DNA of 64,000 bases from Tubulanus polymorphus (lineage: Eukaryota; Animalia; Nemertea). Under the pieces are notes generated by a model. The model did not search any database, was not told where the DNA came from, and was given only the letters and a program-made list of their open reading frames with translations. Both the position numbers and the translations under genes were made by a program. This document shows, one piece after another, positions 12,401-63,229 of the stretch. The DNA is taken from positions 5,592,871 through 5,656,870 of the forward strand of contig NC_134025.1 of the NCBI RefSeq assembly GCF_964204645.1, given 5' to 3'. Numbering within the stretch: the stretch's first letter is position 1; each line of letters begins with the position of its first letter.

Positions 12401-14590
12401 TGTTATCCATATTCTTACTGTGCGGCCTTTTTCGATAGTCAACATTATTGGAGGCTAAAATGTTAATAATTTGTTTCAGGCTCGCGTAGGCGCATACCCA
12501 TACCATGGGATAGTTAAAACTAAAAGATATATATGAATTGAAATATCAGGTTTTCGCGTAATGTTATTTTTTCTGTAACTGACTCCAGCTCGTGTGCACC
12601 TGATGCAACGAAGCTAATATCGAGTTAAGCCAGTCACTTGAAGATGTCAGTGGCGGACGTAGGCTCGAATTATTACCAAGTAGTCATGTGCCGAGTTGTG
12701 AATTTATTTTTACAACCAGATTAGGTTCATTAGAAAACATATCAGTGCAATTAACGTAATGATTTGTATGTAAGCGTGAAACGTTCGAATTCAATGAATT
12801 CTAGACTTCACAATAAATGAGCGTCGCTTGTCAGAATTGTGACAAGTCAAATGTTACGTCGTTATGCATTTAAACACAAGATAGAGACCCGTGTTTATGG
12901 GTGAATTTTTACTGAAATATACATAATACCTTAACAAGAGTAGCGCAGTCCACTTTCTTCCCAAGGTTTACTTAAACTACGGTGTTTAACCCGATTAGCG
13001 GAGTCCATGAACATGAAGATGATACATCTTGTGATAAAAGGTTAATGTCAGGTAGATGCACGTGAGATGGTGAATATTTTCATTAATGATATATGAAAGA
13101 ATAGGCGATTTTTTGGTTGTTATTTTACTCGAGTTTGATCGGTGGCCTGATGAATCAGCTGCCATCAATCATGAGATCGCTGAGATACTGCATGGATAAC
13201 ACGCATGCTGCTTTGACCCATGAGAATTAAAAAGAAATTCTCCGCTATTTTACAGCCATTATTTTCTTTGGGTGGTTTGACAAATCCATTTACCGTCACG
13301 ATCTTATTATCATTTTGCTACCGAAATTCGTGATAAACTGATAAGTTTCCTGCCAAAAAAACGGATTCATCTAATAGAAAAAAACCGTGAAATCTAACTC
13401 TTTATCATAAACCTTGCTTTGAATAACTTTCTGTTGAATTCAAAGGTTTGAATTAAGAGTTGTTTTTTCTATAAAACTTGCTTTTCCTTAAATATCAACT
13501 CTTGGTATTCCGGGACTGACTCGTAGCTCGTATAATAATCTCTCCGTTTACATTCCGTCCCGTTTAACGCTCCAGGGATACGAGTAAAAAACGACAATAC
13601 AATAGGCGGTTTGTGAAGGTATACTGGGCTAGTCAGAAAAGACGCTCGTAATCATGTTATTACAAACGAGTTTTTCATCAATTTCGAGCGATTCTGTTGA
13701 TAAATACAGCGGCAGATATCGTACACAGATGTGTGGTCGATCTTAACCGGTATTTTAACCACGCGTAACATATAGTAAAACATCGCTTATGTAATTCACT
13801 AGAAAATATTGCATAACGCGAGTGCGCACGTTCGGGCCTTCAAGTGTCCTTAGGAAATTCAATAGACTGAGGAAAATTAGTTTTTTTAAGCTAATAAAGA
13901 AATGTGAAGATGGAAGCTAGTTTATAGATGGGTTCTCGTTACAAATTGTTGGTGTCGATTTTCATTTGTTTTTATCAACTCAAATTATTTTCGTGGTCGA
14001 TGTGTGTTACTTATTACACGCAGTCTGATATCGTTCAGCTTATCATCAATTGGCGTCTCGTCTCAAATTTTACCAATCGTTCTTGAATCAATGGCTGGAT
14101 GAAAGTTGGCCAAACTCTCTCCTTCGCGGTCTCGTCGTTTCTGCGTAACGTAAAACCCATAAATAATATCTTTTGAAGGTCTGATTAAGTCGTGACTTGA
14201 AGAAGAAAAATCTCTGCTGGTAGCGGCTCGAGATTAATGCACTAACGGGAGGACAACGGGATTAAAGACCAGGGTTAAACTAAGGAGATTATTCTTTCAT
14301 TAATTTTGCCGCGTACTTTTTTTGAACTGCATTTAACTTCAGGTGCAGTAGATAGAAAAGAACCTGAGAATACCCGAGAAGCATTTTCTAAAAGTTGGAA
14401 CAAATCATTTTGTCCGTTCTTTTCATAGTATCGTAATTCATTTACGGAAATTTCCTATGCGTCCTGAAATATTTGGTACGCAGTAGGGATTTTTTTCCAC
14501 TAATGTCAGGGACATTTTCTAAGCCTATTCATTGTTTTTGCACCTAAATAACATTCGACACGTAAACAGTATTCATTGCGATGGCTAGGA

Positions 14591-14940
<350 letters not shown>

Positions 14941-16199
14941 ATACACGAAAAATAAAAATCCCGCAGTAGATCAAAATTATTTATTAACAGTTATCGGGCA
15001 ATTAATTATCTGAAACAATCTGACCCAATTTCCGCGTATGGTTGTAATTAATTATGGCGTTAGTTACGGTATTAATCACGTATATACGTATGCCCTTTAT
15101 CGTAGTTGCTATGAGATGAAGACCACAACATCAGAATCACGTGTTTTATAGAAAAATAACCCGCTATCTCCGCTGAATATAATTCATTCAAATCACGTGC
15201 TGAAAAATGTGAGATCGTTTCAATAAACCGAAATAAAAATTCTGCAAAAAACTGCACCAAACTTATAATATAGGTATGCTGTTTGAATATATATCAGCTT
15301 TCATAAATTTACACGTGCGTAGAATGAACATTTGTTTAATTACTGATTTCAAGTAAGTTGGAAAGATGCATTATCATCTTTGGTTCAGGGTGGGAACAGG
15401 GTATACGGAGGTTGTATCCTTGATCATCGTTGGCCGACGTGAGAGCTTGGTGCGGCGCACGGCTTCACTCCAGTATCACATCAATCATAAAACTGTAGTA
15501 GCACCGCTAATGAACCACTGTGACCGAGGCTTATACTTATCATTTATGTTTTAATTAATGGTGTATTGTGCTATAGCGGCATGTCTCGGAAGATGACGTA
15601 TGGACTGTGACCGATAATTGATCTCGGGTGTTTGAAATACGGCGTCGTGCGATACGCCGAAAACATGCTTAAAAAGCGGTGATTTTTACGACGCTTTCGA
15701 CGCACGCAGGCTAAAGTACGTCGTAAAGAATCGCTCAGAAAATTATATCAATTGATCCGCGAATACATGTACCGGGCATAATTACACCATGACCCGTAGT
15801 AAACAGTAGTAGTTTTTACGACAGGAGCCGCTTTGAATTTTACAATTCTCCAAAGAATCATCATTACATTCTACACGAAATGAAGTATATAATGGAAATA
15901 AGATCGTTGGATGAGTTATAACTTTTATGTCAAAAGAAGACAATACGTATTCACTGCCCTAATGGCATACGCCCAGATATAACCACATTTTCATTGCTAT
16001 CAAACCAAAACCCAGCAGGTTTTTAATCAATATCTCAAGCAACTATTTTGGAATGATATCAAACCGAACCTAGACTAGGTTTCGGTAAATCTGTAAACCC
16101 GATAGAAGGCCGGTAAAGAGTTTGGCATCCGGAATTGGTATTCCGAAACTGTAATACGTTCAATCGAAACCTGCCTAAAATTGTTAATGTATTGTGTTT

Positions 16200-34500: not shown

Positions 34501-37500
34501 CTCGAAAATGACCCGCAGTTTATAATATTGGAACTGATGCAAGGTGGTGACCTACTGTCATTCCTGCGAGTGTCTCGTCCAACATTGGTGAGTATTTCAC
34601 GGGATCTGTCTAGAGTATGTTCACAGTTCAGTTCCTCCATTTTCACTATAAGTATTTCTCATATTTTGCAGAATTGTGCTCCTCTTCTGACATTGCCAGA
34701 TCTCATTAGTATATCAGTAGATGTCGCACGGGGCTGTGAATATTTAGAGGAAATGCATTTTGTTCATAGGTGAGATTTAGTTTATTTTCTTGAGTTATAC
34801 AGATTCATAGCTTTATTTAGGAGGATTAAAGCGCAGATCTGGATTTAATGAAAATAAGGAATTACCGTACACGTTACTTATACTTTATTAACTTTCTATT
34901 TTGAATAGGGATTTGGCAGCAAGAAACTGTTTAGTAGCACCAGCAGCTGGTGGATCGCGTCTGTTGGTGAAAATTGGAGATTTTGGCTTAGCTCGTGATA
35001 TTTATAAAAATGATTATTATCGTAAAGAAGGTGAAGGATTACTACCAGTGCGATGGATGTCTCCGGAATCATTGATGGATGGAGTATTTACTACACAATC
35101 AGATGTCTGGTGTGTAGATTGTTTTTTTTTTGAAGGGATGTGTTTTAATGGTGTTAAACTGTATTACGAATATCTATCTTTTCTTTTAAGGGCATTTGGT
35201 GTATTGGTTTGGGAAGTAATGACTCTAGGACAACAGCCCTATCCAGCACGAACGAATATAGAAGTTTTGCATTTTGTTCGAAATGGTGGTCGTTTAGATA
35301 AACCAGAAGGCTGCCCATCAGACCTGTAAGTTTTATATTTACATGTTCATGCACATGTATTCTAACATGACCACAGATTTCTTATATGCCATTATGATAC
35401 TTTAGATATTCGCTGATGCTGCAGTGTTGGTGTTACTGTCCCGATGATCGGCCGTCATTCTGTTATCTCCGCCAACAGTTACAACAGCTCAGTGATAAAG
35501 CAGCAGAATTTTCAGAGGCATTGCTAATTGGTAGGCTTATGACAGGTAAGACGTGCCTGCATGCATTGAGCACGTTGTTTGAGCCTGGTTTTTAAACGTT
35601 AAAAAAAGTTGTTTAAGGTTCGTTGATGTCTATGTGGCCACGCATGTGTATGTTCGAAAACTCCAGTTCCAAATCACCCGATCTCACTCCGGAGGAAAAT
35701 ACCTCCACAATTGAAAATGGACAATCAATAGCGTTTGATTGAGGGCTTTTAAATGTATAAAATGAATGATTTGTTTATAGAGTGTTAATAATATTTCTTA
35801 GATGTTCATTATGAGATTTTTGTAAAGGATTGTTTTGTTTGGATACTATTTCGCATGTGCTTAGATAGAATGATGAATGTTGACTATTGCATGATTTATT
35901 TGAATACTCTGTTATCAATTCCAAAAATACACTGTTCACTGTGGACTCTATGATCCTTTCTGGTGATACGTTTTATGCCATCGGTACTTTGTATCTGCAA
36001 AACCGTCCTTATGCATCCTATATGTTGTATCTTCGGTCTATATCGTCATAAACTGGTGAAGATCCTTCCGATGTTTCCTTCCTTTCGTTTGAACCAGGGA
36101 TTCTCGTTTCCCTTTAAGTTTCCCTACATTTCCGTTGTCAGGATGATATTCAATGTTGTATCTTCGAAGGAATGCTTATCATTATTCAATGCATCATGAC
36201 TTGGTGGCTACTGTCTAGCATCTGTATGTTGTGAACGCTAAGCGATTTCTTTTCGGATAATTTGGCCTTATTTCTTCTTTAGAGATTTAAATATTTCTAA
36301 TATTTATGACATAGTCTCAAAAATATCTCAAGCCAACTGTTTCGATTCGTTTTCATCGAGGAAAGGATTTTCGAATTACTTATGAGAAAGTTTCAATCGT
36401 GGCAAATTTTTCTATGAAAAAAATCAAATTAATAACGGGACTGAATGCATAGAATTTATTTTATCTGTTGCTCAGGTGGATTTGATAATCTTGCATTTGA
36501 TACGCTGGAGGCCCAGTCTAGCCGTAAAAAGAAATATCCCAATAAATTATGCGTCAACCTTTCACCCAGAAGCAAAAAGAAATTAGGTGAGAATGGACTT
36601 TTGAAATTTGCCGCCAAGTGAGAAGAGCTCTAATCAGAAATCATCTTGAATATTACAAATATTCAACGACTTTAGGTTGTTGCTAAAACTGGTGTAAACT
36701 GGACCTATTTTATGTAATCATTGGTGTTTACCAATGGATTACTTCGCTATGACTGATCTTCACCAGTTTATAGAAAATCATAGACTCTGCAAGATACACC
36801 ATGATAGCACAAATGAAATTTGTTTAGTATAGTTTCGCCCTATTATAAATTGGAATTGAAGTACTAACTTTTCGTTGATTTCAGCTGTCCATATTCCTGA
36901 TTCTATGAAGATTCTTACCAGACGTAAGCATAAATTACGAACGTTGTTCGGTTGTTATGATGATAGTGTTGTACCACAAAGTCCCGTGGGAGATGAGGTG
37001 AGCAAATTAAAGACACAAAAGCTGTGTTTTTCTTACCAAGAGATTTTTCCTTACCTAAGAAATATTGCATTTTACAGTATTTGACCGCACGACATGGACG
37101 TATGAAACGAGCGCTCTCATTTGACAGTAATCAGTTCAATATGGCAAAAGCGCAAGAAGAGGCTGAATGCATACGATTAGATGCGTTGGGGTATTTGAGA
37201 CCGAATCAAGGCGAGATGCCAAAATATCTGGAACTAATCGCAGATCCGACGGCAGCGCCTGCGCAAACTGGTTTGGATAACGCGACGGACAGTGATAACG
37301 ATGATAGCGTTAGTACGCGGATGGGCCATGAGATGACGCCGCCATTATCCGCTGATTCTCTAACACGTTCGCGTAAATCAGCTGAACGAGTAGTAGTCGT
37401 CGATCAGGAGATTATTCCACGCGAATTACAAGGCTCCGAAAGCGTCATTTCGCATCCGCTGAGCTCAAGCGACAGTCAAACGACGATTGGTCCATCGCCC

Positions 37501-38199
37501 GTCAATCGACAGGATTCTGTTCGCAAGAAACATCCTCCGACACGATTGAACGGACTTATCGCCAACATCGACCCTACGCAGACGAAGAGTAACAAAGATA
37601 TAAAAAGCGAGAATGATGAAACTTCCGACTCGATGTGTCTGACGCAGCTTGAAGATATCAGCAGCCCAGAAATCATTCACCACAAACGTAAGCGTAGTTA
37701 CACACCCTTACCGACAAGTGATCTGGACTCCTCTATCAGTAGCGATGACGCGGAGGATGAAGAGGAGGATGATGAATACGATCCATTATCTGGTAGTACG
37801 CAAAGCTGCGGCCAAAGTGCGGGCCGCAAAATCACTGGGACCATTAACTATGCACAATTGGCTCTAAATTCCGAGAGTGACAGCGAATGTGATACGCTCG
37901 GGCGTAGACGGTCCCAGAAACGATCGCGGCACAGTCGGTCGAGTCGACACGCGACAAATGGAAATACTCCAAGACTATCGCGGCCGCAAAGACTTGATTA
38001 TAAGAATAATCGCAGACTAAATGAAGTCGATTACGAATGCACCGGGTTACACGTCGGTGGTAATAGTTACACTCGCATGCCGGTCATGGGAACACGTATC
38101 AGTCCGGGCCATACACCGCGACGTAAAGGTGACTACATGAACATAAGACATGGCGAGGAAAGTGAACTGAAACCAGACGTTCCATGCGTACGAATTTGA
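22380..38199 (+). CDS. ROS1: ROS1/sevenless-family receptor tyrosine kinase, complete gene (36 coding exons, about 2617 aa)
   Basis: Spliced translation gives signal peptide, FN3 repeats, YWTD beta-propeller repeats (YLYWT, LYWLA, LYWTE, LYWSN), TM helix [33 protein letters not shown], then kinase motifs [85 protein letters not shown]. The pattern is strongly ROS1/sevenless-like. All 35 junctions are GT-AG with consistent phase, and total CDS 7854 nt is divisible by 3. Confidence 0.9.
22697..22911 (+). CDS. ROS1: RTK exon 2 (FN3 domain 1)
   Basis: Acceptor ttttacag, encodes [22 protein letters not shown]...YLRPYTRYQ, donor CAGgtaata. Anchored to ORF 22615-22977. Confidence 0.8.
23784..23865 (+). 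CDS. ROS1: RTK exon 3 (FN3-1 F/G strands, FRIVAKIT...)
   Basis: Joins to give YTRYQFRIVA, the FN3 Y.F.V.A motif. Donor GGACgtaagt. Confidence 0.75.
24048..24344 (+). CDS. ROS1: RTK exon 4 (FN3 domain 2)
   Basis: [37 protein letters not shown]...[21 protein letters not shown], donor Ggtgagc. Confidence 0.8.
24539..24661 (+). CDS. ROS1: RTK exon 5
   Basis: Acceptor tctttag, donor TTTGgtaagt, phase-consistent with exons 4 and 6. Confidence 0.7.
25917..26095 (+). CDS. ROS1: RTK exon 6 (beta-propeller 1)
   Basis: [25 protein letters not shown]...[13 protein letters not shown], donor ACGgtaaat. Confidence 0.75.
26154..26169. repeat. Poly(C) homopolymer C16 in RTK intron 6
   Basis: ggaCCCCCCCCCCCCCCCCatattc. 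Confidence 0.9.
26363..26457 (+). CDS. ROS1: RTK exon 7
   Basis: [32 protein letters not shown] matches the ROS1 CDLENC...SYNGY region. Confidence 0.75.
26535..26968 (+). CDS. ROS1: RTK exon 8 (YWTD repeats)
   Basis: [18 protein letters not shown]...[10 protein letters not shown], anchored to ORF 26521-26982, donor CAGgtaaat. Confidence 0.8.
27102..27194 (+). CDS. ROS1: RTK exon 9 (FN3 start)
   Basis: [31 protein letters not shown], acceptor ttgattttcag, donor AAAGgtgagt. Confidence 0.7.
27502..27708 (+). CDS. ROS1: RTK exon 10 (FN3)
   Basis: [18 protein letters not shown]...[27 protein letters not shown]. Confidence 0.8.
27824..28119 (+). CDS. ROS1: RTK exon 11 (beta-propeller 2)
   Basis: [22 protein letters not shown]...[17 protein letters not shown]. 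Confidence 0.8.
28197..28546 (+). CDS. ROS1: RTK exon 12 (YWTD repeats)
   Basis: ...[22 protein letters not shown]...[19 protein letters not shown]... Confidence 0.8.
28634..28797 (+). CDS. ROS1: RTK exon 13 (propeller 2 end)
   Basis: [24 protein letters not shown]...[11 protein letters not shown]. Confidence 0.8.
28908..29083 (+). CDS. ROS1: RTK exon 14 (FN3)
   Basis: [38 protein letters not shown]... Confidence 0.75.
29160..29289 (+). CDS. ROS1: RTK exon 15 (FN3 end)
   Basis: [43 protein letters not shown]. Confidence 0.75.
29387..29886 (+). CDS. ROS1: RTK exon 16 (FN3 + propeller 3 start)
   Basis: ...[25 protein letters not shown]...[23 protein letters not shown], anchored to ORF 29494-29940. 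Confidence 0.8.
29966..30162 (+). CDS. ROS1: RTK exon 17 (YWTD)
   Basis: [43 protein letters not shown]... Confidence 0.8.
30255..30547 (+). CDS. ROS1: RTK exon 18 (YWTD)
   Basis: [28 protein letters not shown]...CSCSALKL... Confidence 0.8.
30634..30804 (+). CDS. ROS1: RTK exon 19 (YWTD)
   Basis: [40 protein letters not shown]...GPHLQPLP. Confidence 0.8.
30979..31193 (+). CDS. ROS1: RTK exon 20 (FN3)
   Basis: [31 protein letters not shown]...[14 protein letters not shown]... Confidence 0.75.
31272..31413 (+). CDS. ROS1: RTK exon 21 (FN3)
   Basis: [47 protein letters not shown]. Confidence 0.75.
31515..31780 (+). CDS. ROS1: RTK exon 22 (FN3)
   Basis: [45 protein letters not shown]...RYSFW. 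Confidence 0.75.
31883..32065 (+). CDS. ROS1: RTK exon 23 (FN3)
   Basis: [36 protein letters not shown]...[22 protein letters not shown]. Confidence 0.75.
32173..32362 (+). CDS. ROS1: RTK exon 24 (FN3)
   Basis: ...[43 protein letters not shown]. Confidence 0.7.
32443..32566 (+). CDS. ROS1: RTK exon 25 (FN3 start)
   Basis: [41 protein letters not shown]. Confidence 0.7.
32651..32823 (+). CDS. ROS1: RTK exon 26 (FN3, membrane-proximal)
   Basis: [58 protein letters not shown]. Confidence 0.8.
32935..33033 (+). CDS. ROS1: RTK exon 27 (transmembrane helix)
   Basis: [33 protein letters not shown] is a 23+ residue hydrophobic run. Acceptor tttttag, donor TCATgtaagt. Confidence 0.75.
33619..33772 (+). 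CDS. ROS1: RTK exon 28 (juxtamembrane; alternative acceptor at 33634)
   Basis: ...[46 protein letters not shown]. Both AGs, at 33618 and 33633, are in frame. Confidence 0.65.
34149..34311 (+). CDS. ROS1: RTK exon 29 (kinase N-lobe: P-loop and VAVK lysine)
   Basis: [55 protein letters not shown]. Confidence 0.85.
34393..34587 (+). CDS. ROS1: RTK exon 30 (kinase: alphaC, hinge)
   Basis: [59 protein letters not shown]... Confidence 0.85.
34672..34769 (+). CDS. ROS1: RTK exon 31 (kinase)
   Basis: [32 protein letters not shown]. Confidence 0.85.
34909..35109 (+). CDS. ROS1: RTK exon 32 (catalytic loop HRDLAARN, DFG, activation loop)
   Basis: [67 protein letters not shown]. Confidence 0.9.
35191..35325 (+). 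CDS. ROS1: RTK exon 33 (kinase C-lobe)
   Basis: [46 protein letters not shown]. Confidence 0.85.
35406..35545 (+). CDS. ROS1: RTK exon 34 (kinase end)
   Basis: [28 protein letters not shown]..., donor ACAGgtaaga. Confidence 0.75.
36885..36997 (+). CDS. ROS1: RTK exon 35 (C-terminal tail)
   Basis: Phase-consistent junction with exon 34 (G + CT). Acceptor tttcag, donor GAGgtgagc. Confidence 0.6.
37078..38199 (+). CDS. ROS1: RTK exon 36 (long acidic/Ser-rich C-terminal tail, stop TGA 38197-38199)
   Basis: 374-codon open frame in phase with exon 35. Low complexity with Tyr motifs (YMNI, DEYDPL, YAQL, YECTG). Confidence 0.6.
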   Translation, partial: YLTARHGRMKRALSFDSNQFNMAKAQEEAECIRLDALGYLRPNQGEMPKYLELIADPTAAPAQTGLDNATDSDNDDSVSTRMGHEMTPPLSADSLTRSRKSAERVVVVDQEIIPRELQGSESVISHPLSSSDSQTTIGPSPVNRQDSVRKKHPPTRLNGLIANIDPTQTKSNKDIKSENDETSDSMCLTQLEDISSPEIIHHKRKRSYTPLPTSDLDSSISSDDAEDEEEDDEYDPLSGSTQSCGQSAGRKITGTINYAQLALNSESDSECDTLGRRRSQKRSRHSRSSRHATNGNTPRLSRPQRLDYKNNRRLNEVDYECTGLHVGGNSYTRMPVMGTRISPGHTPRRKGDYMNIRHGEESELKPDVPCVRI

Positions 38200-43451: not shown

Positions 43452-43497
43452 CACAGAACTCGTATAGACAACATAGAAAATAGCCGAGCGTTTCAAG

Positions 43498-44196
43498 ATG
43501 GCGAGTAATTCTGACAAGCGAACGTTTCGATTTCCTGGATTGAAGACTCTACGAAAGATTAAGTCGTCTTCCAAGATGAATAAAAACAGAAAAGCGGTGA
43601 AATTCGAAAGACAGAAAATCCAACCGCAGCCGTCACCAGTGTCGTGCAGTTCGGATAGCGGCAACGCGTCTATGTTTGAAAGCAGCTCCAATTCTTCGAT
43701 AGAATATTCGGTACGGGACATCGAACATGAACTGCGAAACAAAAAGTTCGACAGAATCCGCGAGAAGTTGAAGAATCTCAAGAGTAAAGACCAAGCTATG
43801 GTGCATAAAATCTTCGAATTACGGCAGAAGAATTCGCCAGTCCGCCATCACCAAAAAGTGGCACTGCCTGTAGTGAGTCCAAAGCATGTGGCAGTGCCTG
43901 TAGTGAGTCCAAAGCGTCTGTATTTGACGGTGCAGCGTCCGCGACCAATTTGTTCTTCGACGCCGATGCATCGACCGATCAGTTGCCAGATGAACGAACA
44001 GCGAAAACCCGTAAACGCAAATGCGGCTGTACTAGGCTCTCCGATCACTGGAATGATATCTAAATTTGGAATTCGAAGACCGGCGAAGCAGCCAGCGGCC
44101 AGTCGTCCGACATCGGTACCAGTTGCCAAACGAGGAGTCTACTACCGACCAGTAACGTATTTCGATGAACATGGACTAAAATGTACAAGGTGTTGA
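43498..44196 (+). CDS. Hypothetical intronless gene, 232-aa basic Ser/Pro-rich protein
   Basis: 699-nt ORF with ATG in good context. TATA box and Inr-like TCAGTT 50-90 bp upstream, ATTAAA signal about 115 bp downstream of the stop. No recognisable domain. Internal 30-bp tandem duplication (VALPVVSPKH/VAVPVVSPKR). Confidence 0.5.
   Translation: MASNSDKRTFRFPGLKTLRKIKSSSKMNKNRKAVKFERQKIQPQPSPVSCSSDSGNASMFESSSNSSIEYSVRDIEHELRNKKFDRIREKLKNLKSKDQAMVHKIFELRQKNSPVRHHQKVALPVVSPKHVAVPVVSPKRLYLTVQRPRPICSSTPMHRPISCQMNEQRKPVNANAAVLGSPITGMISKFGIRRPAKQPAASRPTSVPVAKRGVYYRPVTYFDEHGLKCTRC
43861..43920 (+). repeat. 30-bp tandem duplication (x2) inside the intronless ORF
   Basis: gcactgcctgtagtgagtccaaagcatgtg / gcagtgcctgtagtgagtccaaagcgtctg. 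Confidence 0.85.
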
Positions 44197-44308
44197 AAGA
44201 TATGGGACGTCTCTCATCAGGGATATTAATTATGCGGTGCTATGTACAAAGAACTTTCACAAACTGTGCATTATATTAATGTGACGATATGAAAATTGTA
44301 AATATTTT

Positions 44309-44314
44309 ATTAAA
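44309..44314 (+). terminator. Putative polyadenylation signal ATTAAA for the intronless gene
   Basis: About 115 bp after stop codon 44194-44196, in an AT-rich 3' flank. Confidence 0.3.
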
Positions 44315-44583
44315 AGAAAATATAACAAAATATACACAAGATATGAAAATGAATTAAATTCTTTCGTAATTATTGTATCTCTTCTGGCGTATATATCTAG
44401 GCTTTTGGTGTTGCCGAGGTTTTATATTCTGATTTAATTACCGGCTTGTACTGGTATACAAATATTGTATCGGAGGAGCCCGCGGGATGAACCAAGTTTT
44501 TTTTCTATATTATGTTCTAGAATGAAATGCATGGTCATATCACCTTGACTGGTAACATAGTAACGGTTGTGATGTGAAAATAA

Positions 44584-46143
44584 TTGCATAGCCGCAAAAT
44601 GTCGGCACCAGAAACAAAGTTGTTATCATTGAAGCGTTATCTGACAAATACTGAACGCGAAAATGAAATGGCTCTCAGGGGACGAGACCCCGATGATTCA
44701 TTTTTCGGGGCAAGAGTCATCGAGTGCCAACAAAATGTGGTCGAAGAAAGAAAACTGGCCAAAGAATTAGATGGTTTGGAAAGACAGAGAAAGATCGCGT
44801 TGGCTAGACTTAACAGTTCTCAACACATTCTTAAACTGACCTGTCGTAAGTATAATAAGGACAGAAAAAGCTCGACTACAATTATAAAGAAAAAAAGCAC
44901 TCAGGATCTTGGGGATACAGGAGATGATAGCTTCGTGCAGGTTGGGTTCCATTTTAAAGCCAACGGAGATCCTAGGCCAAGCGAGGGAGTTAGATTGTCA
45001 AGGTCGATATGTCGTCTGAAAAGCCAAATAAACGATATCAATCAAGCAATATCGACCTCATCGATAAAACACGATCACAATGTGGGGTCTTTTCGTAAAC
45101 TATCGAGCGATCCCGATACTGAGTCAGCGGAACAAGGGGAAATGATGAACGACGAGGAGTACCAAAAAGAAATGGACGAAGTTGAAAAAATGGTAACTGA
45201 ACTTATTAAAGCTGCGAAACGGCATCGAAGTACTACATTAGTAAAGAAGAACAACAAAGGTTCAGACGGAAAGCCGATGGTGGGAAAACATCAGTATCTC
45301 AGAGCTCATGAGAACGAATATGTCTGGCACTTAGAATCTGGTTCTGCTAGAAGGAATAACGACAATACAGGAGTTACCGCCGGTAAATTGTCTTTGACTC
45401 CGTCCGACCTTTACCGACCATCGTATACATCAAAAGCGACCCGAGGAAGCAGGGCAGCAGTTCTGGATCCGAAAGCGTCGTCCCTTTACAAAAATATTCA
45501 CCATACTAAAGCGCAATGTTTGGCATGCGAATATAGATTCAAACAATCAACGCATGAAGAAGTAAGCAAGGGGTCCTCGACGGTCAATGTTCAACCAACA
45601 CCTTCGTCTATGATGCGTAATCCAAGCTGTATTCTTAGAGCGTGGACTCCTTCTTCGGGAAGCCTTCACCACATCGACAACGCATCTTCATCGGGTTTAC
45701 TCCATCGTAAGGGGAGCTCTCGACATGCCGGTTTCAGCAATTCATCGGTAGCATCCTCATCGAACGAGTCAATAGACAGCAGATCGTCAACAACCAGTGC
45801 ACACCTGGCAGTCCCGGGTACGGGAGATTTACGGAAACAAATTCTGAAGAAGATGGTAGTTGCTAGAACGTTAACTCCAGATTCTAACGATAGTAGGTCC
45901 AGATCGCCGTCACCATTGGTCAGTCCTAGGGACGAACAACCGAGAGCTTCATCGTGTCCAGGGCAAGTTGATGCCGGTCATGGCGATACATTATCGATAG
46001 GACATACACCAAGCCCACCACTGGTCAGTAACGTATCAATAAAATTAAATGATCAAGATGAAAGTGAACATCTATTACACAGTCGATCCTCTCATAAATG
46101 GAAAAAACGATGTATATCGACGAAGGAATTGAAACACCAAGCG
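44584..46143 (+). CDS. Hypothetical gene exon 1 (disordered Ser-rich, N-terminal coiled-coil-like region)
   Basis: 1.6-kb ORF (536 codons in table). Donor GCGgtaagc at 46144 joins in phase 0 to the 46278 exon. Confidence 0.45.
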
Positions 46144-46277
46144 GTAAGCGATCATCAAGTCATGGACATTTCATTTAGAATATCTCTTATGTAATAATAG
46201 ATCCACAACCATTTTCATTATCAACATGGACCCATGCTAGACCATATACTTGTCAACCAGGAAAAAATTTTTTGTAG

Positions 46278-46577
46278 GAGGTAGCCACTCAAAGCAGTTT
46301 CATGAAAGTCAACGAATTTCTGCATAAGATTGACGACGACCTAAAACATCAGGAGACGGACGATCGATTCACGGCGAACAGATCGGGCTTATCACCAGCT
46401 CAAACTCAGAACGTATTCAGAAATACACAAAATCGTTATCAACAAGATATACAACGACATTCAACTGGACAGCTATCTAAAGAAATGGAAGCTCTGAAAA
46501 ACTGCCGATATCTGCGCATTTATGTCCCGAAGGCTGAACGAAACAAAAAAGTAGGAAGCTTCGACGCTATACTTTGA
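46278..46577 (+). CDS. Hypothetical gene exon 2 (terminal)
   Basis: Acceptor ttttgtag, open frame EVATQSSFMKVNEFLHKIDDDL... to TGA at 46575-46577. Confidence 0.4.
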   Translation, partial: EVATQSSFMKVNEFLHKIDDDLKHQETDDRFTANRSGLSPAQTQNVFRNTQNRYQQDIQRHSTGQLSKEMEALKNCRYLRIYVPKAERNKKVGSFDAIL

Positions 46578-47268: not shown

Positions 47269-57265
<9,997 letters not shown>

Positions 57266-58427
57266 TCCCAGAGATGAATTGAAAGACAACTCGGCAACAA
57301 ACTGAACGTCATTATTGGAAATTCCACCATTCTGAAAACAGACCAAGTTAATAGTTTGCGAAATGGATTTTTTCAAAGCTTAGTTAATATACCGATAGAT
57401 AAGCTTAGAATACCCAGTCTTACTCCTGAATGAAATATTCATTTATGATAGTAACTCAGGCGTACCTGTTCATGTTGTTGCTTGTCTTTTCTTTGGTTAT
57501 CAATATCATTTGAAGTGCTGTTAAAGCAAAAAGCCAGAAAAGATTATTATCTTTACACATTTGATCTTTTTTGGCGTGATGAGTTTCAATAATGGGTCAA
57601 ATCATTACTTTATGTTATTCACTTTTGTGGGATATGTTTGGTTCACAGGTATTCGACCAAGAAATCTTCTCTTTCCTCCTTCCATCGGAATATTCTTAAA
57701 TCATAAGCCAAACTCAAGCATCATCTCTATCCTTACTTGGATGAAAAACGAAAAGGTTAGAACTACAAGAAATACAAATTCTAATCAACCTTTCTCTTTG
57801 CTGGGTACAAGTTTTTCTGACTATTGCCAGGAGGCACTGTTGTATGTCATTAGACTGTTGTAGTCAAAGTGCAGCATCAGTCAGCGAGGCCGGGGCATGA
57901 TGGTTGTGTTCTGATATTGGATTACTAAAAAATCAAGTCAAGCATGTCAAGCGGTACTATTTCATTGGACAGTTGGATAGCAACAATAATGGGCCCTGTG
58001 TCGTGAAAAGCCCTGTGATATATCCGACCATGTCTGAGTGTAGCCACCCATCACCCATACTGTACTGCTGGTATCTATGACCATCATCTATGGATTGGAC
58101 ATTGGCTGTTGGGCGCAGACATGGTTTTATTGGTTGTATTGTGGTCCGCTGTGTGTGGACTGTGCACAGGGGCTCATCACGATAGCTGGGGGTAAAAATC
58201 AAAGATTTGACCCAGTATCCTAGGTACCACCTATAAAAAAAGGTCTTTTTTTTGGCGGTAAGCTTTTTATAATCGGAATCGGATGGGCTTATACCAACGT
58301 GGAAATATCCGATCGTGAAACTAAACCACAGACAGGTTACTTTAACTTACTGACTACTACTTGTCACCCGTGTGTGGATGATTCACGATTGCCTTATTCA
58401 CATTCAGCCTTATATATACAAAACCGC

Positions 58428-59064: not shown

Positions 59065-59713
59065 TACATTTTCTCAAAGAGCTAGGTGATGGAGACTTAT
59101 GTTGTATTAATAAATGACCGATTGATACTTTCAAGGGAAACTAACAAGATAATCAAGATAATTTACAACTGCAAAAGTTCTAATTTCCCGCAAGTGGCAC
59201 CTCGACGGCGGCCATTTTGGTGGCAGCACTGTACGGTCACCACCAACTGCGAACTAGCGCGCTCACGATTTATTTTCTAATGAACGTAATGCAAAACCAC
59301 TTAATAATTATCAAAACTCCAATATTTACAAAACAGGGCAGAGCAATTTCAAATATACTGATGTAAATATTTCTACCATCACGGGTCCATTGTATTTTTA
59401 TTGCATTCAGGTTCACCTCAGCCAGAATTCCACCAGTTGACCCCAATAAAATGCTGAAACCTGGTGTATGCTGCATAAATACGAACCACATATTTTTCAT
59501 CAACGCTATCTAGTACTAAGAAAAAAACAGATTTCTTTACATTACATACATTTTATTTTCATATACTGTATATATAATATACATACATGTACATATCATG
59601 TTACACAGGTAAACAGAGATTGACACATAAACACATTATAAAAGTCAGAAAATTACAAAATTTACAATATTGTCCAAACCTAATGAGAATATTCGCGAGA
59701 ACCTAAATTAATT

Positions 59714-59953
59714 TCATTTTTTGAAAGATGATAAGGTTGTGAATTGTATACGACGCTTCTGTTTCATCAGGTCCTCCTGAGTCAGCGTCGATTGACTAGA
59801 TTCATCTCCGGAAAGTTCAAGAACAAGGTGTAAATCTTTCTCTTCCTCATTATGAACCGTTGCACCTCCAAAATCAGTTGTAGAATGTTCCTGCTTCGGG
59901 GTTTCGCTCTTGACAATTGAAGGAGGTGCTAAATTCGGTTTAGCACTAGGGGA
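59714..59953 (-). CDS. CHAF1B: CHAF1B last exon (stop TGA 59714-59716)
   Basis: 79-codon open frame after acceptor ctttcag. [21 protein letters not shown]...[14 protein letters not shown]. Confidence 0.65.
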   Translation of the reverse strand, partial: SPSAKPNLAPPSIVKSETPKQEHSTTDFGGATVHNEEEKDLHLVLELSGDESSQSTLTQEDLMKQKRRIQFTTLSSFKK

Positions 59954-62749
59954 CTGAAAGATGAAATAACAGTTTCAATTTTCTAGAAGATAAATTTTTT
60001 AGCAATGATAAGTTGTTTTCCAAGAAAATGGATTGAATTTTTACCTTTGACGATAAAGTAATTAACGAGACGCGTCGTTTACCACTTGAAGCATCTGAGA
60101 CAGTACTAGACCTACATGTAGTTGGTTTCCTTGAAAAAATATGAAATCACAATCATACATTTGTTAAACAAATCAATGGTCAATTTCTTAATTCCAAACT
60201 AATGCTCACTGTACTATTTGAACATCTGGACTATCTGATGTTTGAGCACCGGGGATTTTAGTGTTTTCCTTTTGTTGTTCGACAGGTTCGAGCAATTTTA
60301 CGCTTTCAGTTGCTCCTTCCATCTAGAATTCAAAGGAGCTCATGAATAAACATCGAATCAGATATAAATTCTTTTTCACAATTAGTTAAGTACTTAGTTA
60401 AGATTTTTCTGAAAATTTGTTCACCTTTTTCAGATCATTTTCCTTTGTTTTCATCTTCTCTTCAGATTCTGACTGCGGTTTGTACGGTTTTCCTAATTCT
60501 CCCTCTTGAAACGATATGAAAGAACAATAGCCATCTGTCGAAGATATGGCTAATATTCTACCATCCGATGACCTAAAATTTAGATAATACCGACCAAGAA
60601 AACATAAAATCTGCCTTCCGACTAAATGCTAGCAGAATTTTAAACAAATGGAGATGCTCATACCAAGCCAAGTCACTGAGTTGATGGTAGTGAATATTTG
60701 TAACCCGAAGAAATGGAACCGCTTGCTGTGTGTCATACAGTAAAACTGCATCTTCAGTTGCAACGGCAAATATTATTCGGTATGGAAGACTGAAATAACG
60801 AAATCATTATATTAGCTCTTTAATAGATTAAGTTACGATAAATTTGCATGAAAGTTTAAACAGTAAGTATCTACCAAAATAACGATTGATATTTTTCCCA
60901 CTCTTTTCGATTATTGTTTTCCACATCTTCGGCTTTTTCTGGATAAAAAAAAGATATTTTACACTTTAAATTGATAATTGGAAAAGTAATTCTTTTTTCT
61001 AAATTTTACAAAAAAGGATCAATGCATAGAAAATGTTTTAATGAACATGTTAGAGCACATTCTACAAAATGTAGGTCTGTTTATTGACAGTTTGAATTGT
61101 ACACTAACCATCCTTTTGTCTGGGAATCTTCCGTAATTCAAATAGTACAGGCGAACATCTTACAATCAATGAAGCTTTACCATCGACAGGCAGATGTAGA
61201 GCTGGTCTGTTTAAAAACAACAGAAATCGATGCCAAAACCAATTCAAAGGGTGATGTCAAAAGATAATGTCAAAATACCATCATCCAAAAAACCCTAAGA
61301 ACTCACCGAGAAAATGATCCTCTTGTGAATATATATGAAGTGTTCAAAACTGAATCACCACTTTCGATACAACCGGCCGGGGTAATCAATAACTCTCCAT
61401 CAGGCGAAAAACACAACCGACGGAAAAATGATTTCATCGAATCGTCGTGAAACATTCTCGACAATTTCGATTTTCCTTTGTCGGCCGACGTGACGAGTTT
61501 CGTCACTTTTTGAATGCATTGTTTCGTATTGACATTGTATATTCTGCAACACCTGGAATATCATTGAAACCTAACTTAAGTTCATACATTTTATAGTAAA
61601 ACTACTACTTACGACAATCATTTATCATCTATGGATTAAAATTGTCTTACTTTCGGTGATTAATATTTACCTATCACAACTCAAAGTAGCTACGTATTGA
61701 TTCAAAGGATCCCACGCAACTCCCTGTACAAAACTCTTGTGTTCTTTCAGTATACTTATGCTTTTGCCTGAATTGAAGATAATGAATTCATGAAGGACTG
61801 GGTAATAAAATTAGACCGATAACCGACTGTTAGCCAGCGGCGAGTAACTCACCTTTTTTCACATCCCACATTATAGCGCTATTATCTACCGAACCAGAAA
61901 TTAGGAAATTACTGTCTGCCGACCAGCACAAATCATAGATATCCTCAATATGACCCCTGAAACGTTTAAACAAGACATCTCATCCCGAAATCAATTTTGC
62001 TGCAAATCGGAACATATTTCATTGGCAGATTTTAACATCGTAAATTCTCTAAATTTTCTATCCATTGAGTTAAACCAGGGCTAAAGTAATGATACACCAT
62101 CAAGTTATATATGGAACATTATTAACCTGAGGGTTTTGATAACACTCCAATTTTCCAAGTTCTCATCATCTTCGTCTTGAAATATACTCGGAGCGGCTGC
62201 ACTGTTGTCATTCTGTTGCCACAACAGTATCACAGAATCTACAAAGAACGACACAATGTATCAGAAGAGCGTTTTGAAAATATTGAGGGCGGCCTATTCT
62301 CAACTCACAAGATACCAAGTCTTGAAAGTATCTATTTTAATGAGACCCAACAGGTTGTTCACTTATTTTTTCAAAACAAAACAAGAAATTCAACTTACCA
62401 TCTCCACCAGATGCCAATATCTCACCTGAAATAAATTTTAAGAAAAAAACAATTAATACAATGCATCTATTAACTAAGAGTTTCGAGGAAAAATCCAATC
62501 AATCAGGCATATTTTACCATTTGGTGAAAATCTAACAGCATTCACTGCCCGTGTATGTCGTGTTAGAGTTGCCAGAAACTGAGTACAAGCTTGTCCTTCA
62601 TCATCAATTATAACTCGCCAGATACGGATATTCTTGTCGGTACCCGATGTCACCAATCTTGTGATTTCTCCGTTTTTATCGTGCTGAAAATCGATACTGT
62701 AGATCGGGTCTCTGTTATGCCATGAGATTTCTGGTGTTACCAACTTCAT
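59714..62749 (-). CDS. CHAF1B: Chromatin assembly factor 1 subunit B (CAF-1 p60, WD40) gene
   Basis: The N-terminus [36 protein letters not shown] and the internal block [47 protein letters not shown] closely match human CHAF1[23 protein letters not shown] and [18 protein letters not shown] are also conserved. Eleven exons mapped, and one C-terminal segment (about 60112-60424) is unresolved. Confidence 0.85.
60045..60111 (-). CDS. CHAF1B: CHAF1B penultimate exon (tentative; the exon upstream of it is unresolved)
   Basis: Good acceptor and donor (TCAAAGgtaaaa) and open frame [22 protein letters not shown] in phase with the last exon, but the preceding junction phase could not be reconciled. 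Confidence 0.35.
60425..60572 (-). CDS. CHAF1B: CHAF1B exon 10
   Basis: [50 protein letters not shown]. Confidence 0.75.
60664..60789 (-). CDS. CHAF1B: CHAF1B exon 9
   Basis: [42 protein letters not shown]. Confidence 0.75.
60876..60933 (-). CDS. CHAF1B: CHAF1B exon 8 (tentative)
   Basis: Phase-forced choice of acceptor. Poorly conserved segment. Confidence 0.4.
61109..61206 (-). CDS. CHAF1B: CHAF1B exon 7
   Basis: [33 protein letters not shown]. Confidence 0.7.
61307..61543 (-). CDS. CHAF1B: CHAF1B exon 6
   Basis: ...[51 protein letters not shown]. Confidence 0.8.
61671..61767 (-). CDS. CHAF1B: CHAF1B exon 5
   Basis: [32 protein letters not shown]. Confidence 0.75.
61853..61956 (-). CDS. 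CHAF1B: CHAF1B exon 4
   Basis: [35 protein letters not shown]. Confidence 0.75.
62127..62238 (-). CDS. CHAF1B: CHAF1B exon 3
   Basis: [37 protein letters not shown]. Confidence 0.75.
62399..62425 (-). CDS. CHAF1B: CHAF1B exon 2 (27-nt micro-exon)
   Basis: Encodes GEILASGGD, matching human [10 protein letters not shown]. Flanked by a tatttcag acceptor and GATGgtaagt donor. Confidence 0.7.
62518..62749 (-). CDS. CHAF1B: CHAF1B exon 1
   Basis: ATG at 62749, donor AATGgtaaaat. Confidence 0.85.
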
Positions 62750-63229
62750 TTTTCTGCAAAAAATATTATGTTCATTTCAATCTCATATTCATAATCAGCA
62801 CTCGGCCACAAAAAAGTAGGCCAGCAGCAACATTTTTGCTACTTGAGATAGACTTCACAAATAATACAACCCCGATGACGAAACAAAAGTAACTTCGGAA
62901 TTTGGACGTTGATAAGTACGCTAGGCAATAAAAATGTTTTTAGTTTCTGGGCGAAGAGTCTGGATCTGGATGATGAATGAAAAAAATGAAGAAGAAATGG
63001 ACTCGTCGTCGGCCGGCCCGCCGGGCACTTATTCAATAGAAAAACGTGTCCCCAAATTGCTTAAATTATAGACCGTTAAACTAATGTTGGTGTCTTTGGT
63101 ATCTTTATCGTTTTGTGTTTTGATTAATTACTGCTTTTATGAAGTTATCAAGGTAATTATTGGCAAAATCCTTTTGAATATTGAGCCTTAGTTCTTGGAA
63201 GTTAATACTAAATCGAGGAATTGATATCG

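Follow-up and report, generated by a model that had tools for sequence, protein, structure and literature searches.

How far does the coding sequence of a receptor tyrosine kinase (RTK) extend when several hundred open codons follow its kinase domain, and what could so long a C-terminal region do? The question is raised by a large ROS1/Sevenless-type RTK gene on the plus strand of a 64,000-nucleotide stretch of the genome of the nemertean Tubulanus polymorphus (NC_134025.1, positions 5,592,871 to 5,656,870; the whole of this stretch is called the window), an AT-rich eukaryotic DNA with a GC content of about 37%. An initial annotation had joined two exons to the kinase and had described the result as an acidic, lineage-specific signalling scaffold. 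We find that three exons, here called A, B, and C, probably complete the coding sequence of the gene at its 3′ end, and that together they would encode a disordered docking tail of about 448 residues.

Kinase exons occupy 34.1–35.5 kb of the window, and residues 16–285 of the composite protein match PF07714 with E = 2e-94. Among the matches listed, the best ones for the kinase domain are named ROS1, ROS-like, or sevenless (57–71% identity), and the domain is about equally near to annelid, psyllid, vertebrate, and bivalve ROS proteins. Farther upstream, Pfam recognizes FN3 in two exons, the FN3-containing exons lying at 29–32 kb, and strings of the YWT type (LYWTTT, LYWTEQ, and LYWSNQ) are visible in the upstream translations; two exons tested gave no Pfam propeller match. 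Intron positions around the last kinase exon, which encodes the string YSLML, are shared with insect genes: the phase-2 intron before it is common to the window gene and Diaphorina, and the phase-1 intron after it is common to the window gene, Diaphorina, and the beetle Henosepilachna. A large microsatellite of the (TA)n / (TATG/TACA)n type lies inside an intron of the RTK gene (14547–14990) and is the source of spurious “YIYIYI” frames, open on either strand.

The first of the tail exons had been missed; because the length of exon A is a multiple of three, its absence left the earlier model in frame. Coding for 36 residues after a split glycine codon, exon A carries the post-kinase motif of the ROS family, GxxNxAF (in fuller form G-h-x-N-x-A-F-[DE]). 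In BLASTP, alignments starting from the kinase extend without interruption into this exon for proteins from turtle, the chimaera Callorhinchus, and whale shark, as well as in the fragment P0035, which has an insect-like tail: GGFDNLAFD of exon A pairs with GLLNHAFED (turtle), GIINLAFES (Callorhinchus), GIVNQAFEG (whale shark), and GGVANRGY (P0035). The annotated Henosepilachna orthologue is built in a corresponding way, with a last kinase exon ending in phase 1, then a 57-nucleotide exon of phase 1 to 1, (C)VHGVSNEAYFQD, and then a terminal exon; the 57-nucleotide exon VHGVSNEAYFQD, with its GxxNxAF, is the equivalent of exon A, and the exon after it holds KYLEL, a motif that recurs in exon C. 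Judged by motif, alignment, and phase, exon A is a genuine RTK exon. Its length would also allow it to serve as a cassette exon.

The two exons that had been proposed before, B and C, were placed exactly: their coordinates stand, their splice sites are canonical, and they join in frame to give 411 residues, a length that exon A raises to about 448 (469 residues when counted from where the Pfam kinase match ends). With exon A open to its end in phase 1 and exon C beginning in phase 0, B followed by C is the only consensus route onward. Between 36587 and 37077, exon B is the sole open AG...GT segment that has a length of 2 mod 3 and a GT[AG]AG donor; it encodes a basic linker and restores the frame of exon C. 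The coding status of exon C can be stated plainly: at the composition of this exon, chance would place a stop about once in 20 codons, and an open run of 373 codons has a probability of about 3.6e-9; when the whole window was shuffled 100 times, the longest run free of stops had a mean of 134 codons and was at no time longer than 250. The tail region contains no other open reading frame on either strand, and the next coding stretch on the plus strand lies beyond 43 kb.

A second line of evidence comes from another species. In a collection of 5.8 billion proteins, the sole homologue of the tail among the matches listed is P0001 (E = 9e-20), encoded on the metagenome contig L001, and at least one other species, the source of L001, has a long version of the tail. 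P0001 is colinear with exon C from the phase-0 acceptor, about 8 codons before the KRAxSFDS block, to the VRI-stop at the C terminus, with about 30–32% identity and 24% gaps. Of the 115 residues that are identical between the two, 81 (70%) are encoded by different synonymous codons. Exon C is under selection at the protein level, because identical residues use different codons in the second species: silent sites are saturated while peptide islands are held in the frame of exon C. Among the tails compared, the arrangement of an exon B followed by a phase-0 exon C is common to the window gene and L001 alone. A counterpart of exon B was sought in the 357 nucleotides upstream of the L001 terminal exon, and the 5′ end of the contig (1–52), some 355 nucleotides upstream of that exon, is open in one frame, ...GRSYQAKPGLPSGCQ/GTGAAC, with a phase-0 donor; GRSYQAKPGLPSGCQ may be a weak counterpart, on which we do not rely. 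The possibility of an unrecognized intron in the middle of exon C was rejected, the frame being open across the poorly conserved linker in both species. A related-locus scan of metagenome contigs returned no relative, and three possible gene calls for exon C had no exact match among recorded products. Four metagenome stretches matching a degenerate 12-residue pattern were judged to be chance matches, their similarity to the tail being found around the motif alone; the one checked directly, L003, has a GC content of 61%, and its match to the tail is limited to the surroundings of the motif.

Conservation in the tail is limited to short islands, namely GxxNxAF, RxKRAxSFDS, a 10-residue block, KYLELIADP, LPTSDxDS, [IL]NYAQLAL, RKG[DE]Y[MI]NI, and the C-terminal VRI, which are separated by fast-evolving linkers rich in Ser, Arg, and Asp. 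Five of the ten tyrosines of exon C sit in such islands (GYLRP, KYLEL, RSYTPLP, INYAQL, and DYMNI), each of them within a block of at least five residues identical to P0001. KYLEL[LIV] is found after the kinase in ROS/Sevenless proteins of beetle, true bug, psyllid, and spider, the same proteins holding the ROS kinase; the instances of the wider pattern [PG][KG]YLEL[LIV] are NQEGMPKYLELLCDP (beetle), GGPKYLELVYED (true bug), PGYLELL (psyllids), and NKYLELLGD (spider), and a 21-residue stretch of exon C aligns locally with the beetle NQEGMPKYLELLCDP at E = 4e-4. This is motif homology to ROS/Sevenless tails, observed directly. INYAQL and its P0001 form, LNYAQL, have hydrophobic residues at −2 and +3 of the tyrosine and fit the h-x-pY-x-x-h consensus, in which h is hydrophobic; YMNI and the YINI of P0001 are a conserved match to pY-x-N. 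Motifs of the pYxxP type, here GYLxP, are preferred by SH2 domains of the Crk, Nck, and Abl classes.

The tyrosine motifs quoted in the initial annotation, YMNI, NYAQL, DYECTG, and DEYDPL, are all present in the translated exons, and its broader proposal that the tail carries plausible phosphotyrosine docking motifs finds support in the conserved YMNI/YINI site, a candidate of the pYxN type. Two of the five motifs proposed, DEYDPL and DYECTG, fail as motifs, since neither is conserved in P0001, the sole tail homologue. At the C terminus, the identical VRI is spelled with different codons in the two species (GTA CGA ATT in the window and GTA AGA ATC in L001) and might be a ligand of the PDZ type (hydrophobic-x-hydrophobic). 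Two basic clusters, HHKRKRS (37684–37698) and a 16-residue cluster (37903–37950), resemble nuclear localization signals (NLS) or Arg/Ser (RS)-rich sequence and are partly conserved in P0001.

The composition of the tail had been called rich in Asp, Glu, Ser, and Arg, with acidic runs. Enrichment is seen for Ser, Arg, and Asp (11.9%, 9.0%, and 8.5%), but the 448 residues, exon A included, balance 65 Asp + Glu against 65 Lys + Arg, with an isoelectric point of 7.3 and no net charge. Along the tail, blocks of charge alternate between −7 and +9, the +9 falling in the exon A/B region and a +7 at a 16-residue basic stretch; the term polyampholyte, with a single acidic run, fits the tail, and the term acidic tail does not. 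The run quoted earlier is present, encoded by a short (GAN)n repeat, but it is absent or gapped in P0001, in which its tyrosine is replaced, and such a pattern is characteristic of disordered linkers that lengthen by slippage. Trp is lacking from the tail, disorder-promoting residues make up 62% of it, its grand average of hydropathy is −0.95, and tyrosine is not enriched (12 of 448 residues, ten of them in exon C). A Pfam scan of the tail returned no family, and no folded domain is present. The best reading of these features is that of a predicted intrinsically disordered region carrying short linear motifs, its conservation limited to short islands.

Compared with other receptors, the tail is long. 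Counted after the RPxF motif, in a sample that is biased in that the matches listed are all at most about 1.75 times as long as the query, it has 476 residues, the largest value in the sample; human ROS1 has 139, and the earlier statement that the tail far exceeds that of vertebrate ROS1 holds. The corresponding figures are 112 for a Sevenless-like protein of D. guanche (P0065), 93–130 for other insect ROS/Sevenless proteins, 274 for a spider, 292 for a whale-shark ROS-like protein, 340 for a nematode RTK in the same match list, and about 190–306 for ALK-type matches. ALK and LTK, the sister RTK group, likewise have long, disordered, Ser/Pro-rich tails with scattered Tyr motifs (190–306 residues), but the ectodomain of the window gene appears to be of the ROS type, with repeated FN3 and YWTD-like exons, and its best kinase matches are ROS, not ALK.

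Within the ROS/Sevenless family, the likenesses are distributed over different lineages. Vertebrate ROS1, the kinase of which is 65–68% identical, presents the same order of GxxNxAF, a first Tyr motif (KYLELI here), and then [IL]NYA.L (INYAQL here). By their order along the tail, KYLELI corresponds to vertebrate NYMVL (human Y2274, mouse Y2267) and INYAQL to vertebrate NYACL (human Y2334, mouse Y2327; vertebrate forms include GLNYACLTH and VLNYASIA), although about 208 residues separate the first Tyr motif from NYAxL here and 60 in vertebrate ROS1, which also lacks the extra pYxN, the basic and RS-rich blocks, and the VRI end. YMNI had been likened to NYMVL; it does fit pY-x-N, and P0001 has YINI, but it is not NYMVL-like and instead parallels YANE of Drosophila Sevenless, which has a single pY-x-N near its C terminus (YANE is 8 residues from the end, YMNI 20). 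The D. guanche Sevenless-like protein, with a kinase identity of about 59%, differs in having neither KYLEL nor NYAxL in its sequence. Arthropod ROS/Sevenless tails (Henosepilachna P0049, Boisea P0010, psyllids P0003 and P0007, and spider P0048; 93–274 residues) share [PG][KG]YLEL[LIV] and a YxxP motif, GYE[IV]P there and GYLRP here, which follows KYLEL in the arthropods and precedes it in the window tail; no NYAQL block was seen in them, and the Boisea tail has YTNV near its end, in a place similar to that of YMNI. The conserved Tyr motifs thus look like ancestral ROS/Sevenless docking sites, with the linkers and the acidic run appearing lineage-specific, and the tail is an ordinary, if extended, case of a ROS1/Sevenless-type C terminus and no new kind of system.

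Studies of other members of the family indicate what such sites could do. The phosphorylated Y2267 of mouse Ros, found by means of the consensus hXY(P)XXh, binds the N-terminal SH2 domain of SHP-1 (PMC2199605); its human equivalent, Y2274, undergoes autophosphorylation, and SHP2 is recruited to ROS1 once the receptor is active (PMC10565643, PMC11437283). This tyrosine is thus a major site of autophosphorylation at which SHP-1 and SHP-2 dock (PMC2199605, PMC10565643, PMC11437283). In addition, Y2546 of fly Sevenless (KQLpYANEGVSR) binds the SH2 domain of Drk, the Drk/Grb2 SH2 domain recognizing pYXNX (PMC11203457). By analogy, activation of the window receptor would lead to trans-autophosphorylation of the conserved tail tyrosines and recruitment of SH2 proteins, the tail acting as a flexible docking arm. 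The pY-[MI]-N-I site would engage Grb2/Drk and through it Sos-Ras-MAPK, as Y2546 does in Sevenless; the h-x-pY-x-x-h site [IL]NYAQL and pYLEL would engage phosphatases of the SHP type (Corkscrew/SHP-2/SHP-1), as Y2267/Y2274 do in mammalian ROS1; and pYLxP could attract SH2 domains of the Crk/Nck/Abl type. The Ser-rich, acidic, and basic linkers may in turn be targets of Ser/Thr phosphoregulation, the conserved RxKRAxSF being one candidate.

For the annotation, the correct 3′ end would comprise three exons beyond the kinase and add about 448 residues, the first model having had one exon fewer. For the family, two tail tyrosines of mammalian ROS1 and the Drk site of Sevenless would stand together in one invertebrate receptor, which suggests that the three types of docking site are ancestral and have been differently lost or kept in flies and vertebrates. 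Such a comparison could guide mutational work on ROS1 signalling, in which the role of Y2334 is poorly defined.

Other accounts of the tail differ in what they make of the same exons. Exons B and C, or exon C alone, could make up an independent gene downstream of the RTK, driven by a promoter of its own and starting, for example, at the Met of DSMKIL or GRMKRAL: the gap of 1.3 kb past 35545 could accommodate a promoter, ATGs in frame occur at about 36906 (exon B) and about 37105 (exon C), and the contig encoding P0001 is without kinase sequence. Yet the Met of RMKRAL in exon C is Val in P0001, and in L001 the first Met follows KYLELIADP; because none precedes the conserved RVKRAASFDS...KYLELIADP block, the L001 exon cannot start an independent protein. 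Exon C begins at a phase-0 acceptor in both species, KYLEL and NYAxL are tail motifs of ROS/Sevenless proteins that contain the kinase, and exon A, clearly ROS, needs a partner that only the route through B and C supplies by consensus. We regard a separate gene as highly improbable; on motifs, intron phases, and splice logic, B and C most likely belong to the RTK. It is also rather unlikely that the long tail is an alternative isoform, with the main transcript stopping past 35545 or past exon A, through intron retention or early polyadenylation, or skipping exon A to give the 411-residue version. Inclusion or skipping of the 111-nucleotide exon A keeps the frame, read-through of either donor meets a stop within 10–16 codons, an AATAAA stands at 36541, and the exon structure of the tail varies among insects; but the splice sites are strong throughout, selection on the protein acts on exon C in both species, and, with KYLEL, NYAxL, and YxN all in exon C, a short form would have none of them.

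An account that accepts the three exons, and that we find very unlikely, has the tail translated with the RTK as a mostly neutral, drifting, disordered spacer in which no quoted Tyr motif is used for docking and the conserved islands serve trafficking, Ser/Thr phosphoregulation, or C-terminal binding of the PDZ type. Identity to P0001 of only about 30% with 24% gaps, the slippage-type repeat of the acidic run, and the KRKR and RS-rich basic clusters and conserved VRI end, which point to other functions, are consistent with it, and the conservation of five of ten exon C tyrosines is not significant alone against 32% identity overall. The setting of each conserved tyrosine among at least five identical residues argues the other way, as does the match of three of them to types of docking site defined experimentally in the same receptor family. 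The lineage-specific scaffold of the initial annotation keeps its linkers and acidic run as lineage-specific elements, but the docking motifs themselves look ancestral to ROS/Sevenless. A stronger form of it, in which ROS/Sevenless became its own multi-site scaffold in the lineage of the window genome and the source of L001, is unlikely: it would combine the SHP-type YLEL and NYAxL, the fly-type Drk/Grb2 YxN, and YxxP in one tail and add the RxKRAxSFDS basophilic site, the KRKR/RS-rich NLS-like clusters, and a VRI end that might bind PDZ proteins as new conserved modules. If true, it would imply functions absent from the ROS1 and Sevenless proteins studied, such as polarized localization or signalling in the nucleus by an intracellular fragment released through cleavage.

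Several points weigh against the reading that we prefer, a docking tail encoded by the last three exons of the RTK. We infer every splice join, and with it the phosphorylation and the binding partners proposed above. Exon B has no convincing homologue, and the single homologue found for the tail lies on a contig that stops short of the kinase. No match listed is longer than about 1.75 times its query (783 residues for the 448-residue queries, 402 for the 230-residue query), which points to a probable limit on length in the homology search, so that the missing match to a kinase plus tail is uninformative; a profile search of 1.84 billion representatives with a two-sequence alignment of the tail gave 0 matches, missing even P0001, and is uninformative as well. 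An AlphaFold2 model of the tail has a mean predicted local distance difference test score (pLDDT) of 40.1, no residue above 70, and one 9-residue helix, but it was run on a two-sequence alignment, and its low pLDDT is weak evidence of disorder. KYLEL fits the strict hXYxxh consensus at +3 alone and falls outside it with Pro at −2, and matches to motifs of 4–6 residues are leads, not proof of binding. The features on which the argument draws are collected in Table 1.

Table 1. Position in the window of the last kinase exon, the tail exons, and features of the tail; a slash marks an exon boundary
Feature	Position	Strand	Remarks
Last kinase exon (YSLML exon)	35406–35545	+	Ends ...LIGRLMT/G; phase-1 end; donor CAG/GTAAGA
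Exon A	36476–36586	+	111 nucleotides, phase 1 to 1; canonical sites gttgctcag/GT and TAG/GTGAGA
Exon B	36885–36997	+	113 nucleotides, phase 1 to 0; acceptor tttcag/CT, donor GAG/GTGAGC; 38 residues
Exon C	37078–38199	+	1122 nucleotides, terminal; 373 codons + TGA (38197–38199); acceptor ttttacag/TAT, phase 0
Basic-Ser block, 10 residues	37099–37128	+	Conserved (RVKRAASFDS in P0001); candidate basophilic Ser/Thr kinase site
Most conserved block, 25 residues, with two Tyr (GYLRP, KYLEL)	37174–37248	+	Identical in P0001
Basic cluster, Tyr, and LPTSDxDS block, 16 residues	37684–37731	+	Conserved in P0001
Acidic run, 15 residues	37744–37788	+	(GAN)n tandem repeat 37744–37772, period 12, 2.4 copies
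INYAQLAL	37843–37866	+	h-x-Y-x-x-h (like an immunoreceptor tyrosine-based inhibitory motif); LNYAQLAL in P0001
Arg/Ser-rich basic block, then TNGN.P, 23 residues	37903–37971	+	TNGN.P conserved
VDYECTG	38026–38046	+	Not conserved in P0001
YMNI block, 11 residues	38122–38154	+	pY-x-N; RKGEYINIPHD in P0001; 20 residues from the C terminus
C-terminal (P)xVRI-stop	38185–38199	+	Last three residues identical in P0001 (L001 1471–1479)
Candidate polyadenylation signal AATAAA	38460–38465	+	First after the stop, 261 nucleotides downstream; sequence match alone

The rest of the window contains further genes. The next plus-strand gene after the RTK, at about 43477–46574, has open stretches of 239, 536, and 99 codons and encodes a low-complexity protein rich in Ser, Lys, and Glu. 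On the minus strand, a gene like POLQ (DNA polymerase theta) occupies about 47270–57380, with helicase motifs, the polymerase motif DYSQLELRM, and a central exon of 722 codons and low conservation (50710–52875). It is followed along the window by CHAF1B (chromatin assembly factor 1 subunit B; about 59700–62780, minus strand), the best named matches of which are hemipteran, at 34–41% identity.

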